From Pseudomonadota bacterium (lineage in GTDB: Bacteria; Bdellovibrionota; Bdellovibrionia; Bdellovibrionales; SG-bin7): 64,000 nt of DNA. This document shows positions 24,001 through 30,000 of the stretch, piece after piece. A program made the position numbers. The stretch spans positions 32,001-96,000 of the forward strand of contig JAWXAY010000029.1 in the NCBI GenBank assembly GCA_034439715.1, read 5' to 3'. Numbering within the stretch: position 1 is the first letter of the stretch; each line of letters starts with the position of its first letter.

Positions 24001-27000
24001 TTGTGGGCCTTGACGAATCTCGCACAAATGAAACAGCGGGAATTCTGCTAGGTTCCAATCTCTATAAAACATCTAAGGCCTGGAAGATGGGACTCGGATG
24101 GACCTACAGCAAACGTGAGGTTTTAGATATCACCTTCTATCGTGTCGGCCCGAGTGTAGGCTTTGGCTATGATAGTACGTCACAAAAGGGTCACGAGATT
24201 TCTCCAGAAAAGGGGCAGAAAGCGTCACTGGGCTATACACATTACCTTTCGCCGAAATTAGGCGATGGCCGACTTGATTATGAACAATATGATGGTGAAT
24301 ACAGCTTGTTTTTTTCTAAATGGTTGCCCGAGCGGCAAGTCGTTTACTTTCACACCAAAGGAACCTGGGGAAATTTTGACAGCCCCTTGTTAGTGGGCTC
24401 CACCACCAGTAGCGCAGCTTTTCAAACGACGCTCATTACAGGTGATTTTTTAATGCGTGGTTATCCATCGGGATCCTTTTTAGGAACAAAAATGTGGGGC
24501 GGAAACATTGAGTATCGCTTTCCCGTTTCAACTATTAACCGCGGCGCCGATACAACGCCTTTTTTTGCTAAGCGAACACACGGTCGAGTTTTTGTCGATG
24601 GTATTGCCACCAAAGGCCTCTATTATAATTTTACCGAAGAAAGCTATAAAACTAGCAAAATGAAAGATTGGTACTTTTCGGTCGGTGGTGAGCTTCATTT
24701 AGAAACTACACTTGGTTATGCACTGCCAATAACCTTCTATGCGGGCTTATATTATGGACTTTATACGCCTGTTTCGGGTGGAGATGTGGCTCCATTTATC
24801 GGAATAGCACTGTAGTCTTGACATATGCCATGGGGTCTAGCCAATAATGGAGTATGGAGGGTCACCTATGGAAAAATTAGATTGGGTGCGCGAATTGGTT
24901 CAGGCTGAGCAGCAAATGGAAGAAAGCGGCGTTGTCGATTTTAATTCCGTCCACAGCGATGAATTAAACCTCAAAGATGAAACAGTTTCTTTTTTAAAAG
25001 ACCTGAAAAATGTTTTTATAGAATATGTATCTGAGTTCAACCAACTTAAAGGTAGCCAAATTGGTCGTGTAAAAATTTATGGTATCTCACAAACCGACGC
25101 CGACTTTATGCTTTTTAGAAATGGCTTTAAACTCATATTTACCATGCGTGAACCCGGACGCGTTGCAATTATTTTTTCGTTTTTGGCGACTTCGTTTTTA
25201 GGCTTAAACAAAGCTTCTGAAACCCCTGCCACCACCCTACAAGAAGAAATGTTGGAAGCTCAAGTTGGGGCGTTTTTAAAAGTCAGCTGGTCGTATCAGG
25301 GCCAGCCATTTAACACAGACAACATGGTTCGCTACTACCTGACTCGATTCATCAAAGAATCGGCTAGATAAAAAAACACGGACTAAGATTTCAAAGTTTC
25401 GTAACGCCTTTTGGCGTAGAAAACTAGACTTGTGTTTATACCTAATTTACCCGATAAAATAGGTATATGTACGAGAGACTTCTTAACCCATTAAAAACGC
25501 GAAGTTTTTTTCTGTTCGGACCTCGGGGAGTTGGTAAATCCACTCTTCTGAAAGGTTTTTTTCAAACCAGCGAAATTGGTCTGTGGTTGGACTTGCTGGA
25601 CGAAGAATTAAATCGGCGATTACTTCTGCATCCAAAAGAAATTGAGGCAGCAACAAAAACGCTAAAAAAAGGCTCCTGGGTTGTTATTGATGAAGTACAA
25701 AAAGCACCTGGTCTTCTTAATTACGTGCAAAGGCTAATAGAATCACAGGGCCTCAAGTTCGCCCTTACTGGTTCGAGTGCACGTAAACTAAAACGGGAAT
25801 CAGCAAATCTTCTTGGCGGACGCGCACATGCGTACAGCCTTATGACATTAAGTTGCAATGAGCTTGGTGATGACTTTGAATTAAAGAAAGCTCTTGAATT
25901 CGGACTCTTACCTACAATCTGGACCGATCAGGTCATAGAATCACAAAAAGATTATTTGCGTGGGTATGTGAATAACTACATTCGACAGGAAATAAAAGAG
26001 GAGCAGGTTGTACGAAAGCTAGAGCCCTTCTTATATTTTCTAGAAGCAGCGGCACAAATGAACACTGAGCCGATTAACTTTACTAAAATGGCGCGTGATG
26101 CGGGCGTAGACAATAAAGCAATTGAACGTTATTACGAAATTTTAGTGGACACATGGCTTGGCTTTTTTCTGTTACCCTACGATAGATCGATTCGTAAACA
26201 GCAATTGCAAAGAAGCAAATTTTATTTTTTTGACAACGGAGTTTGTCGAACTCTGGCGCAGACCTTGAACGTTCCGCTCTTCACCTCTACCTCAGATTTT
26301 GGCAAGGCATTCGAACATTTTATTGTGCTCGAAATTCACAAACAAAATATTTACCTCAAGAAGGATTTTCGTTTAAGCTACTTGCGTACAAAAGATGACC
26401 TTGAGATCGATCTTGTGATCAAAACTCCACGTGGTAAAATTCTATTAGTTGAAATAAAAAGCACGACAAGTGTCGATACACAAAGTATGGCTTCAAAGGT
26501 CAGGCTCAAAAAAGATTTAAAAGCTGAGGCGTTATGGATCTTCTCACAGGACCCCGTCCGCCGTGATTACGAAGAATTCACTGTTTGGCCATGGCAAGAG
26601 GGCTTAAGACAACTTGCTAAAATGCTTTAAAATCTCTTGTCAAATACGATCATGAGTTTACCTATCAAATAACGAATGGCACCGCCTCGACTTTTGTAAA
26701 CTAGAATATCACTAACGGTACCGGTCTCATGGTCAAAAACAAAAATTAGATCCCACTTAGTTTGACCATCAGTATAAACTTCATATGTTAAGTTAGTATC
26801 ATAGTTGTAATATTCTCCCGTTGGTGACCCCAGATCACTCCTAACTTGATCTCCCGTTTTTCCAATAAAATACTTTTTGCTAATCAAATCAGCGACAAAA
26901 ACCGCCTTGTCATTTGCTGCTGCCTCACGGAACTGATGAGCAATAAAAGGAGAGTTCCCCCAATACAATTGAGCCTCCCAGCCAAACATGTATCTATCAA

Positions 27001-30000
27001 ACCGATATGCCATAAACCCCACGAGAGCTAAAAACACAGGTGTTAACGTAATAATAGTAAACAGCCTCATCGCTCTAGTAAGACGAATCATCTGGAATTT
27101 TACCTGAAGGTCGGAGTACAACTAAATCTTTATTTTTAAGACTTTTAAGAGCTAAAAGATAGAGTTCATCGGCAGTAAATTTATCCCCCAGGCTTAATGC
27201 AGCCTCAACACCTTTTTTATTATTAAACAGATCCATTTGTTGGCTTGGCGATAGGACTTCCTGCTCGCTTTCATGAGCATCTAAATAACGTTCAGCAAGT
27301 GTCTGTCCTAAACCATTAGTTAAAAAACCCGCCCATACAAAATGGCGAAAGGCATCGGCCTCACCGTCTACGCTTCCCTTTTCAAAAAGGCGACCCATGG
27401 CGTAGTCGCTTCGGAACTGGTACCAAGCCACAAGAAGGGACTCATAAGGATACTTTCGTACTAACGACTGTTCCCGGGGTTTCAATTTTGGATACAGAGT
27501 ACCCAAGCGACCTAAAGTTGTTTTAAAAAATTCATTGAGTCTCTTAGCGTAGTAATCCACATCGCCGATTACAGATGCCAATGCGATACGCTGAACATCC
27601 GGTCTTAATGGTTTTAGATAGTAATCACTTAGATCGATTGTTTGCGTGGCATCTGACGGATTGTAAATACTAAGCATTTGTGTCTCGAAACCTTTGCTAC
27701 TGCTTCTAACAATTAAATTCTTTTCTGGCACCTTAGAGAAAAGATTCTCGCTCGGCAATACATGAGTCGATCGTATACCTTCTATGTTATTTTTGAACTG
27801 GGAAAAGTCATAGTATTTGCCTTTAATAAGTTCAAAAGCGCCTTCCAAGTCCGATCCACTTACTTTATTGAGTATTGAAATTCCAGCGTCTAATACTTTT
27901 TAAACTGATACCCTTTAGTGGTATGGATCCTCTCTCACGCGTCGAAAAGTTCAGTAAACTCAGCGACTTCTCGGACTCCTTGTGGTCCAAATACACGTAA
28001 GTGTATTTGGAGAGCAACGAGAGGACATAAGCTCTTTAAATTTGTGAGTTTTTCGAGGCGCTAGATCTAAGCCATACCCAACAAAGGGTATCAGTTTACG
28101 CTCTTTAAACTTCGATGTTAATATTAATTTCGCTATCTAAGGTAGCGACTTTAAATTGTAGGGGCCTAACAGAACTAACCACCCACAAAACTTCGTCCCC
28201 AATTTTATAAGAATGATTTGAAAGATTTTTAATTCGCGCCAGATCACCAGAAAAATTAGCCACAACCTCTCCGTCACAGGGTATTTCAATAATACGCGCC
28301 AGGATTTTTTGCCCGAGTTTTAAAAACGGCAGGATATGTTTCATTTGGGCGCAGCCTGCCCCAGCGCCTCGCGATATCGATTGCCAAGCGACTCGAGTTC
28401 TTTACCTTCTTCGGGATCGACTTTGACAGCTGGGGGCTGGGCCCAGGCGGGCAATTGCGCCTCGTTAAATACCAAATTGTCTTTGTTCACTTTACTAATA
28501 AATGAAATCTCGGCAAGGGGTAGATCAATTTTATGTGAAATTTCGTGTGCAGAAAGTCCTTGGTTGGCCAATTTTGCCGCTGCAACATATTTTTGTGTAC
28601 GTTGCCTTTCGATTATTTCATCATGCGGAATTTTATCTTGAAATATTTCAGCAACTGTCAAACTTTTCTGAATGGATTGTTCGATAAGCTGTACTTGCTT
28701 TTCACTTTCACTCACTGACTTATTGAGATCCCGACACTTGCGATCGAGAAGCGCCGAAAGTTGGCTCACTTGCGTGTCGGTTTTGTCAGAAAGATCTTCG
28801 AGCACCGCAATTTTGCTTTGTAAAAGCTGTAGTCCACGACTGAGCCTGGGATCTTCTTTGGGCGGACGGCTAAATTTCATCCACAGAAGCCATAGGCCCA
28901 AAGCAAAACCCACATCGATAGCTACCTGTAATATCGTCAGCATGTTGCAGCGCCCCTTTCTTAAATTATACCCAGTTAGAACGGCGCTCGCAACAAGACT
29001 AAAGTCTTACTTCTTTATCTCCTGTCTGAGTTCCATAGCTTGTGAGTTTGCGAAATCAGCATTAAAAATTCGCTTAGCAGTTAAAGTCACGATGACTTCA
29101 TTGCCATCTTCGAGATCGTCCACCTCGACATCAGGAAGCTGTGCAAGCTTTAAGGTAAATTCATTCTGGCCTTTGACAATAACGTTTTCAGGAATGACCC
29201 CCTCAAAAAGAGTTTTATTCCAAATGATGGGGCGCACTTTTTCAAACTTAACATGAAATTGAGTTGTCAGCATATCTGAGACTTGCCCTTCATCACTAAC
29301 ACGCGCCTCAAACGTAGATTCTACACCCGCAACTGATAGCTTTAATTTTTGCGCCTCTTCGGACCACATCACTTTGTTAAATGTCTCTCTATAAACATTA
29401 CTGGAATAATCAATTTGTGACTCATACCAAAGACCGCGACTCGCGCGAGAATAAACTTGTTGTGAATTGGCAGTTAAATACATTTTGGCTTCGCCAAACA
29501 AAGAAAGGGAGCGCGGCGAATTCCAAGCAAAAGTATACTTATAGTTTTTACCGCTAATAAATTCGTTGTAGGAATTACTGATGACAGAACCAGCTGCAAA
29601 TAACTGCTGTGCTCCGGATTTTTGTTGCCAAAGATTAACACTTAAAATGGGCTCGCTGCCTAAAAGATCCTTAAAAGAAATCGCTGCCTCTCGGCTTTCG
29701 GGTGGAAGAGGATTAAGACTAGGTATTAAAGTGAGTGCGCCCCAAGCACCATCGGAACCGTTGCTGCCAATAACCCTACCATTAGATCCGCTATCACCAT
29801 CGCGACAAGAATAATAGGTGTCGGTACACTTTCCGTCATTGGTACACTTTCGCACTTTCCACTGAGAGAGCGAACAGTGACAACCTCTGCCGCCATGACC
29901 AGCGCGACCACTACGACCGCCTTGCCCTCCATCAGAAATTACCGAAATACGCGAAATATTTTTTATGTCGTCAGTATAAATGATGACATTCCCACCATGG

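Follow-up and report, generated by a model that had tools for sequence, protein, structure and literature searches.

A 5′-truncated BteO-like toxin gene beside a whole putative immunity gene at a dispersed repeat in a Bdellovibrionota genome

The window analysed here, 64,000 nucleotides of contig JAWXAY010000029.1 (contig C29 of assembly GCA_034439715.1), carries two overlapping reading frames on the reverse strand. The upstream gene, g00905 (27075..27848, (-)), comprises 257 codons from a TTG start, has no signal peptide, and appears to be the remnant of a DUF6973, or BteO-like (Min-Wnt Lipocone), toxin gene; its DUF6973 core (27180..27458, (-); residues 131-223) is delimited by a Pfam match and by the invariant columns of two alignments, A3 and A4. 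Downstream, g00904 (26627..27091, (-)) encodes 154 aa from an ATG at 27091, within an open frame that in full spans 26627-27121 (-), and is an intact, BtiO-like and BamE-like putative immunity gene. Its product has an N-terminal membrane helix, placed from sequence at about residues 8-31 (26999..27070, (-)) and modelled as one long helix of residues 2-33, and a predicted periplasmic BamE-like domain (26678..26959, (-); residues 45-138), in which helices precede three strands in the model and which aligns to BtiO. The survey's finding of a DUF6973 gene with an overlapping gene for a small, one-helix membrane protein is borne out, the overlap being 17 nt. In our view the locus is likely a toxin-immunity cassette of two genes, with the toxin copy in the window disarmed, the immunity gene whole, and intact pairs elsewhere in the genome.

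The open frame of g00905 and its homology to relatives extend upstream to 27899, where they are bounded by an in-frame TAA (27900..27902, (-)). Two of the three bases of this stop are the last bases of a 198-bp MITE-like imperfect palindrome (27901..28098, unstranded), a dispersed repeat of the genome with 21-nt terminal inverted repeats (arms 27901-27921 and 28078-28098, 90% complementary), and the break in homology falls exactly at the terminal inverted repeat. Compared with a 480-aa lipoprotein ortholog (L020), g00905 is 59% identical to residues 205-480 only, and nothing resembling residues 1-204 was found at positions 26000-30500 of the window. On this comparison g00905 is a 5′-truncated gene, which has lost its first ~205 codons, those for the lipoprotein signal and the N-terminal domain; as these codons are missing, the window copy cannot be exported. 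The survey's remark that g00905 as called lacks a signal is therefore correct but incomplete.

DUF6973 (PF22322) is the only Pfam family found in g00905 (E 1.2e-12; score 47.9 bits, gathering cut-off 27), and it is matched by all 72 aligned relatives. In a PDB search with the A3 family profile the sole match was BteO (9uu0_A, E 1.6e-6), with DAFRHxxW, AHE and DxxNNxxG aligned, establishing homology to the toxic domain of BteO (residues 83-end); BteO is absent among the Foldseek matches listed for the whole 257-aa model. The core of g00905 carries R168, H169, W172, H192, E193, D206, N209, N210 and G213, all in invariant columns of A3 and A4, the latter with 72 sequences. According to the BteO report (PMC12541434), mutation of BteO R143, H144, H167, E168, D187 or D191 abolished both toxicity and OmpA9 binding. 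Counted along the A3-9uu0_A alignment, R143, H144, H167, E168 and D191 coincide with the R, H, (H), E and D that do not vary in the family (R168, H169, H192, E193 and D206 of g00905), such that five of the six required residues are present. The sixth, D187, falls at Ser202; BteO has a 10-residue insertion in this loop, which makes the match uncertain, and the position is acidic in most relatives. By their signals, intact members of the family are Sec-exported, and they take two forms: lipoproteins of ~460 aa, and proteins of ~215 aa in which a signal peptide is combined with a Cys-rich head. Their expected site of action would be the periplasm, with the cell envelope as the target. The ~300-aa N-terminal region of the long forms was given no name by the atlas and sequence search (first 300 residues) or by Pfam (whole proteins), and a search of limited reach with residues 28-300 of the intact paralog, looking for the alternative C-terminal toxin domains that mark a polymorphic toxin system in the strict sense, returned only three proteins: two with DUF6973, and a partial copy of 330 aa, 100% identical and lacking any recorded domain.

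DUF6973 has its toxic domain in common with BteO and a core of five helices in common with Wnt; this places it in the Min-Wnt branch of the Lipocone superfamily, an assignment based on fold, motifs and sub-threshold Pfam matches rather than on published family profiles. The g00905 model displays the predicted helical Wnt core (a four-helix cone and a fifth helix), the Pfam wnt family is touched below threshold by 17 of the 72 members (best E 0.0019), and no family other than wnt and DUF6973 itself recurs in more than two of them. The ancestral Lipocone active site consists of a His in H2, a Glu in H3 and an Asp in H4, to which the SAA-Wnt clade adds an sNxxGR motif (PMC12419801); we count these as present in g00905, where the last Arg of the motif is Val, and in BteO it is Arg (NNQIGR). 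The premise, taken from the BteO report, that BteO lacks known homologs is thus incomplete, as fold and motifs group it with the Min-Wnt toxins, and the DUF6973 toxins are relatives of the bacterial proteins from which animal Wnts arose. This kind of system has been described: a Min-Wnt toxin with a signal peptide or lipobox and a membrane-anchored BamE-like immunity protein, encoded as a two-gene unit (PMC12419801). The present family shares with those systems a helical Wnt-core domain that stands alone after its signal peptide or lipobox, the rapid evolution of the anchored partner, and the conserved His/Glu/Asp pocket with its NxxG motif. Neither DUF6973 nor BteO occurs in that paper, and the phyla that its table gives for this architecture do not include Bdellovibrionota, entered there just for CapCone-2. 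TelC-TipC of Streptococcus intermedius belongs to the same superfamily and, like these toxins, TelC is active only outside the cytoplasm (PMC12419801). Unlike the pair described here, however, TelC is a lipid II phosphatase of the ClaspCone-CapCone-TelC clade that is exported by type VII secretion, its immunity protein TipC differs in fold from g00904, and TelC is absent from the best 50 structure matches listed for our toxin model.

No Pfam family was found in g00904, and the partner family (98 representatives at E <= 1e-3) yielded, as a profile against the PDB, no match to BtiO but just an unrelated chain at E 0.97; BtiO and the partner do not match at the level of sequence. In contrast, BtiO is the first PDB match of the g00904 model (pLDDT 95.8), aligned over residues 45-138. 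As modelled, the product is a membrane-anchored periplasmic protein of BamE-like fold (a two-helix hairpin, then three strands) and a structural twin of BtiO, encoded, as expected of a BtiO-type immunity gene, beside its toxin. BteO-BtiO, the type VI pair of Bacteroides fragilis GS074 (PDB 9uu0 and 9uu1), has the same order of toxin gene then immunity gene, and BtiO likewise faces the periplasm (PMC12541434). The pairs differ in that BteO has an N-terminal transmembrane helix, whereas the family here has Sec or lipoprotein signals (g00905 having neither signal nor helix); in that BtiO is released by a cleaved signal peptide and the partner is held by its membrane helix; in the ~300-aa N-terminal region which the long forms add; and in the truncation of the window copy. 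The solved BteO-BtiO complex suggests, by analogy, that the g00904 protein may block the conserved groove of the toxin.

Whether such a toxin would only bind, or also cut, is finely balanced. The survey's caveat that the invariant His, Glu and Asp may mark an enzyme stands, since an enzyme is what the Lipocone paper predicts (PMC12419801). A catalytic toxin domain, which we hold to be a real possibility just short of even, would, like other Lipocone domains with intact catalysis, act in the periplasm on lipid carriers, lipid II among them, and cleave off their phosphate-linked head groups, as TelC does; the immunity protein would plug its active-site pocket. The active-site residues are there in both proteins (g00905 H169, E193, D206 and N210-x-x-G213; BteO H144, E168, D191 and NNQIGR), the polar residues are invariant in the 72 sequences, and their loss kills BteO toxicity. 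The BteO phenotypes in PMC12541434 (elongation, blebbing, lysis, altered muropeptides, inactivity towards sacculi and muropeptides, and toxicity solely in the periplasm) fit an interrupted supply of wall precursors; lipid II and undecaprenyl have no occurrence in the main text of that paper. YfiM, of another Lipocone family, is described as a lipid-linked oligosaccharide pyrophosphatase (bioRxiv 10.64898/2026.09.16.752124). Against catalysis, the BteO authors report that BteO binds OmpA C-terminal domains directly, that overexpression of OmpA6/8/9 rescues cells from it, that a triple ompA mutant mimics its phenotype, and that the very same point mutants lose OmpA9 binding. Further, no Min-Wnt protein is known to have been assayed as an enzyme on lipid-linked substrates, and the metazoan Wnts are an instance of the fold working without catalysis.

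PF22322 occurs at exactly three places in the genome, and tblastn with g00905 recovers the other two, on C29 (201060-201800, 36% over 248 aa, E 5e-45) and C21 (27%, E 2e-15), in agreement with the three loci of the survey, which had also rightly ascribed lipoprotein signals to two of the proteins (lipoboxes ..LSLVGC on C21 and ..ILSSC at ~202 kb of C29). Its description of three pairs, each with a small partner, needs qualification: the partners in the window and at C29:200636-201013 are related (34%, E 1.7e-17), but that on C21 is unrelated to either (hhalign probability 1.5%). The intact pairs, at C29:200558-202418 and C21:1006-2813, would be the live weapons of this genome. Seven OmpA_C matches were found in the genome, six of them above cut-off. 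VipB/TssC and Hcp, the type VI components searched for, have no match in the 95.7% complete genome, which upholds the reported lack of type VI genes and sets these pairs apart from the type VI-delivered BteO.

The linkage of the two genes is conserved among relatives, with the partner directly following the DUF6973 gene in 13 of 19 loci, and following it in 60 of 79 loci from a species-representative genome collection. Nearly all of the 79 carry titles of Bdellovibrionota lineages, and a few read Proteobacteria, Pseudomonadota or Deltaproteobacteria, a restriction that is partly built in because the loci come from a scan of genome contigs with a pattern derived from Bdellovibrionota sequences. 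Four loci have two partner genes, three of these with two DUF6973 frames as well. In 13 of the 79 the DUF6973 frame lacks a hydrophobic N-terminus by our heuristic; two of these (L023 and L046) have a signal-like start by eye, and L095, whose frame is of normal length, may either have been cut off at the 5′ end or simply have escaped the heuristic. The remaining ten are short frames of 100-225 aa, nine of which keep a full-length partner. Likewise, the RBG_16_40_8 ortholog has suffered in-frame deletions of the signal and N-terminal domain and of the core beside a whole partner, and, among 41 related genomes, three contain the partner but give no PF22322 match. Decay of the toxin with retention of the immunity gene therefore recurs among relatives.

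The survey had proposed that the predator exports BteO-like toxins against prey. For the window copy, bereft of its signal, this fails; for the intact paralogs, the lipoboxes are in keeping with export. Restricted to those pairs, the proposal would have lipoproteins, exported by the Sec and Lol routes into or onto prey, bind the OmpA C-terminal domain and detach the outer membrane of the prey from its wall, with the partners guarding only the predator's own periplasm during passage of the toxin, and we regard it as improbable. It draws on the absence of TssC and Hcp matches, on the Bdellovibrionota titles of the loci (subject to the origin of the scan pattern), on the conservation here of the residues which BteO reportedly requires for OmpA-C binding (PMC12541434), and on the position of an invading predator, which would occupy the very compartment in which BteO acts. 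Precedent for self-protection comes from Bdellovibrio bacteriovorus, where the wall weapon Bd3459 reportedly passes the periplasm and Bd3460 protects its producer (PMC4686830), although these are a DD-endopeptidase and an ankyrin-repeat protein with no homology to the present pair. Prey-directed toxins, however, usually lack immunity genes (PMC12419801), and neither partner-only genomes nor whole partners beside decayed toxins would be expected if the partner guarded against the cell's own toxin alone. Moreover, the predatory habit of this uncultured mat organism is inferred from relatives, and a route across the predator outer membrane is an assumption. Truncated toxins beside whole partners, together with partner-only genomes, are accounted for by conflict among relatives no less well than by the killing of prey.

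The truncation might instead be an artefact in which two copies of the repeat were falsely joined, the real genome having g00905 at full length, signal peptide included, but this is very unlikely. The repeat is indeed multicopy: further copies lie on C110 and C16 (both 93%), a partial copy on C26, and end matches of 23-33 nt on eight further contigs, mostly near the contig start, and, relative to the flanks, its summed depth is 3- to 5-fold in runs X1, X4 and X7 and roughly 2-fold in X5. A false join is conceivable because the Logan contigs of all four runs end inside the repeat, at 27927-27930 (27-30 nt in), with many loose ends, confirming the two junctions separately; none of the contigs listed spans the whole repeat. 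Nonetheless, contigs of all four runs show the gene remnant joined to the repeat end with no sequence difference, a 506-nt contig of X1 bridges the right-hand junction, and the repeat end interrupts the coding frame whichever copy is joined. A simple insertion would leave the 5′ half beside another repeat end, yet tblastn of ortholog residues 1-215 against the whole assembly found nothing besides a 40%-identical paralog; given 95.7% completeness, the missing half could be unassembled. The independent loss of the same region in RBG_16_40_8 also argues for true decay. That g00905 works inside the cell, as do signal-less Min-Wnt effectors proposed for antiviral defence (PMC12419801), is less probable still: its frame and invariant residues are kept, but it clearly derives from a lipoprotein gene cut at the repeat, retains a partner facing the periplasm, has no DUF3892 fusion of the antiviral kind (Pfam finding DUF6973 alone), and has a putative TTG start.

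We therefore favour the reading in which the toxin gene would have lost its 5′ end at the MITE-like repeat, leaving a remainder devoid of an export signal. Because that remnant stands beside a whole immunity gene, g00904 would be an orphan immunity gene, probably protecting against the same type of toxin from relatives. As the 257-codon frame is open and the invariant core residues are all present, g00905 may represent a recent loss or may keep some role.

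The DUF6973 (PF22322) gene of this locus, g00905 (27075-27848, minus strand; TTG start, 257 aa; Pfam score 47.9 bits with a cut-off of 27, E 1.2e-12), is followed by g00904 (26627-27091, minus strand; 154 aa from an ATG; no Pfam family), whose start lies 17 nt before the end of its neighbor, bearing out the overlapping pair of the survey's finding. The two further paralogous loci that it named in this genome are equally real, as PF22322 is matched in three places and tblastn aligns g00905 with the copies on contig C29 at ~201 kb (36%, E 5e-45) and on contig C21 (27%, E 2e-15). 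Both paralogs carry a lipobox, ..ILSSC in the C29 protein (463 aa) and ..LSLVGC in the C21 protein (455 aa). A scan for promoters and terminators across 26300-28500 was uninformative (6 promoter-like sites versus 3.8 +/- 2.2 expected).

Homology between DUF6973 and BteO, a type VI effector of Bacteroides fragilis, was proposed previously, and is confirmed here and extended to the partner. With the g00905 sequence alone, the sole PDB match is the MBP-BteO chain 9uu0_A at E 0.2; with a profile of 17 DUF6973 domains from the source genome and its relatives, the same chain is the sole match at E <= 10, and reaches E 1.6e-6. The alignment pairs the motifs DAFRHxxW, AHE and DxxNNxxG, and places BteO R143, H144, H167, E168, and D191 against family-invariant R, H, H, E, and D (R168, H169, H192, E193, and D206 in g00905). 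Alanine mutants at these five BteO positions lose both toxicity and OmpA9 binding (PMC12541434). BteO D187 pairs with Ser202 of g00905, adjoining an insertion in BteO where the alignment is uncertain. The survey had also reported BteO as a Foldseek match of the g00905 model, a result not reproduced as such, since BteO is absent among the best 50 matches listed for our whole AlphaFold model (72-row alignment, pLDDT 85.9), of which the best reaches E 0.32.

Comparison of the partner with BtiO, the immunity protein of BteO, had been left undone, and yields a match in fold. The model of g00904 (70 rows, pLDDT 95.8) comprises an N-terminal helix followed by short helices and three strands, and its top Foldseek match in the PDB is BtiO (9uu1; E 1.7e-3, probability 1.00), with BamE chains next. 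Searched against the PDB by sequence, the partner-family profile missed BtiO and matched a single unrelated chain, an IgA protease at E 0.97; g00904 alone matched nothing. BtiO is said to be a mimic of OmpA-C, and chains of that kind are absent among the best 50 matches listed for the partner model, which may nonetheless bear such a likeness. A search of 1.84 billion proteins yields 98 representatives of the partner family (E <= 1e-3). A cleavable signal peptide is present in most members and a membrane helix in some, including g00904, and no Pfam family is common to more than four of 70 partner sequences. Complex prediction for the g00905 domain (residues 95-257) with the periplasmic domain of g00904 (residues 35-140) gave no verdict (score 0.00 in both control-free runs) and is uninformative either way. 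Together, the matches of g00905 to BteO and of g00904 to BtiO mean that the pair corresponds to both members of the Bacteroides system, one via sequence and fold, the other via fold only.

The toxin gene of this pair is incomplete. Its nearest relative is a 480-aa lipoprotein (locus L020; L018 is identical) paired with the g00904 ortholog, and g00905 covers only residues 205-480 of that protein, at 59% identity. The match extends 17 codons upstream of the TTG and ends at an in-frame TAA; residues 1-204 have no counterpart within 26000-30500, and the missing 5' part is found nowhere else in the assembly, save in a 40%-identical paralog. The break in homology coincides with the end of an imperfect, MITE-like palindrome of 198 bp (27901-28098) bounded by 21-nt terminal inverted repeats, and the TAA (27902-27900) is composed of the last two bases of this element plus one more. 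Copies with 93% identity lie at C110:11041-11248 and C16:39441-39637, with a partial copy at C26:2930-3024, and Rfam returned nothing at E <= 1 on 27700-28300. As the 23-33-nt end of the element also matches eight more contigs, mostly near the contig start, the element probably breaks the assembly. In the Logan contigs from four microbial-mat sequencing runs (X1, X4, X5, and X7), depth summed over the element exceeded flank depth 3-5-fold in X1, X4, and X7, and about 2-fold in X5. Gene-side contigs end at 27927-27930 in all four runs, with many loose ends, and a 506-nt X1 contig bridges the right-hand end of the element. On the evidence of these contigs both junctions of the element are real; their placement on one element copy rests on the original assembly. 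Given that BteO is harmless in the cytoplasm (PMC12541434) and that the g00905 remnant is without an export signal, we read g00905 as a toxin gene that is dead or dying, next to an immunity gene that is whole. The survey's proposal that such toxins serve predation does not apply to this copy.

The pairing itself is conserved. Among 41 related genomes, PF22322 occurs in 14, the partner family in 13 and both in 10. These genomes contain 19 DUF6973 loci, 13 of them with the partner directly downstream. The remaining loci fall into three pairs: two have another small membrane protein, of the C21-partner family; in two the neighbor is a membrane protein that spans the membrane several times and carries an endonuclease/exonuclease/phosphatase domain; and two lack any such neighbor. 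Scanning 185,579 species genomes with the pattern [SA]DA[FYC]RHFxW[AS], derived from the DUF6973 alignment, yielded 79 loci, which by record title are nearly all from Bdellovibrionota lineages, the few others being labeled Proteobacteria, Pseudomonadota, or Deltaproteobacteria; because the pattern was built from such sequences, this taxon list is not the range of the family. A partner stands 3' of the toxin gene in 60 of the 79 (60/76 where at least 450 nt of downstream sequence is present). Intact toxins take one of two forms by our own hydrophobicity heuristic: ~215 aa with a signal peptide and Cys-rich head, or lipoproteins of ~460-500 aa. Pfam searches with the whole long-form proteins assigned no family to the N-terminal region, whose structural look-alikes in the atlas fall into unnamed clusters of proteins of ~335 aa (TM 0.65-0.68). 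Four loci (L073, L076, L086, and L089) have two partner genes each, and three of these (L073, L086, and L089) two DUF6973 ORFs also. The two toxin copies of L073, and likewise those of L086, are almost the same in signal peptide and Cys-rich head, as if the cassette had recently been duplicated.

Partners of other kinds are also seen. Of the paralogous loci named by the survey, the ~201 kb locus on C29 has a partner related to g00904 (34%, E 1.7e-17, tblastn); the C21 partner (g00611; no Pfam family) was rejected as a member of the BamE-like family (hhalign probability 1.5%). It belongs to a second family of ~150-aa proteins with one membrane helix (C21:2361-2813, equivalent to L001:1851-2300; and L005:805-1263), which has no Pfam family, is unrelated by hhalign to the BamE-like partners, and is encoded downstream of the toxin in one branch of the long lipoproteins. 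In genome G013 (L004), the toxin of this branch has an ortholog accompanied instead by a protein that weakly matches the BamE-like family (E 2.4e-8). In genomes G034 and G003 (L006:1886-2827, plus strand; and L009), a short secreted DUF6973 gene is followed, in place of the BamE-like partner, by an overlapping PF03372 multi-pass membrane protein (E 1.8e-22). This protein may act as a different kind of immunity protein or as another effector.

Loss of the toxin with retention of its partner recurs beyond this window. In the ortholog from RBG_16_40_8, the first nine codons are joined in frame to residue ~226 and the AHE..DxxNN core is also gone, with the partner whole. Our own heuristic detected no hydrophobic N-terminus on the DUF6973 ORF in 13 of the 79 loci; two of these (L023 and L046) have a signal-like start by eye and one (L095) is of normal length, and the remaining 10 are short ORFs (100-225 aa), nine with a full-length partner. 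Further, three related genomes (G020, G029, and G033) encode a partner without any PF22322 match, and no DUF6973 gene lies beside it. As an antidote kept without its poison makes sense if neighbors make the poison, we infer that retained immunity is no less an argument for conflict among relatives than for prey killing. The Bdellovibrionota harbor a widespread family of putative Sec-exported envelope toxins whose toxin genes are repeatedly lost while immunity genes are kept, a pattern that bears on whether these bacteria fight one another besides their prey.

Comparative genomics of the Lipocone superfamily (PMC12419801) described 'Min-Wnt' domains as bacterial relatives of the Wnt core that retain an intact catalytic site; helices 2-4 bear His, Glu, and Asp, and there is an sNxxGR motif. 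The number of loci given in the supplement is 442. Such toxins are predicted to act on the phosphate-linked head groups of lipid carriers, in the way that TelC attacks lipid II. The Min-Wnt features set out in that paper are all present in the g00905/g00904 pair, and in 17 of 72 DUF6973 members there is a sub-threshold match to Pfam wnt; apart from DUF6973 itself, no other Pfam family occurs in more than two of the 72. Accordingly, the pair is of a kind already described, and a new, partly decayed example thereof, from a phylum that the paper's table omits for this architecture.

The authors of BteO called it nonenzymatic and without homologs (PMC12541434). BteO does not occur in the Lipocone paper, and a literature search of limited reach found no paper joining the two. 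The residues interpreted by the BteO authors as an OmpA-binding groove are those of the predicted Lipocone active site, and lipid II is nowhere mentioned in their main text. Their binding, rescue, and triple-mutant data are real evidence for OmpA as a target. Another Lipocone family, YfiM, is reported to have pyrophosphatase activity on lipid-linked oligosaccharides (2026 preprint, bioRxiv 10.64898/2026.09.16.752124). We consider enzyme and binder about evenly matched as readings of the BteO/DUF6973 domain, and the two are not exclusive. A broader and less probable proposition is that BteO and all DUF6973 proteins might be Min-Wnt enzymes which cut lipid-linked wall precursors, with OmpA binding secondary or for docking; that Bdellovibrionota might deploy Sec-exported versions without an injection machine, either within the periplasm of prey or against competing predators; and that the resulting arms race might leave disarmed toxins and orphan immunity genes, as in this window. 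Were this so, the published description of an effector as 'nonenzymatic' would have to be revisited, and solved structures (9uu0 and 9uu1) would already exist for the first bacterial relative of the Wnt core that lends itself to experiment.

The locus is unexceptional in itself, a partly decayed representative of a toxin-immunity type with two earlier descriptions, the experimental work on BteO-BtiO and the comparative-genomic account of Min-Wnt with BamE-like immunity. Its main value lies in bridging these two recent papers, and in the pattern of toxin loss with immunity retention. The link between BteO and the Lipocone superfamily supplies the bacterial branch of the Wnt family with solved structures, and raises a testable question, namely whether BteO or an intact Bdellovibrionota homolog cleaves lipid II.

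Several neighboring genes merit description. An AAA_14/DUF4143 ATPase gene adjoins the pair or an orphan partner in three genomes, in differing orientations (25467-26630, plus strand, in the window; L020:1-1053 and L111:2022-3185, both minus strand), an adjacency which may be chance or the mark of a variable island. The genome's best match to an OmpA_C-like domain (21307-21594, minus strand; E 1.9e-20; possibly Pal-like) is in a 192-aa frame, 5 kb from the pair, adjoining a 972-aa secreted protein of no Pfam family (21897-24815). Lastly, a 436-aa secreted protein (29007-30317, minus strand), also of no Pfam family, has a long N-terminal half rich in Gly, Ser, and Asp, and containing Cys.
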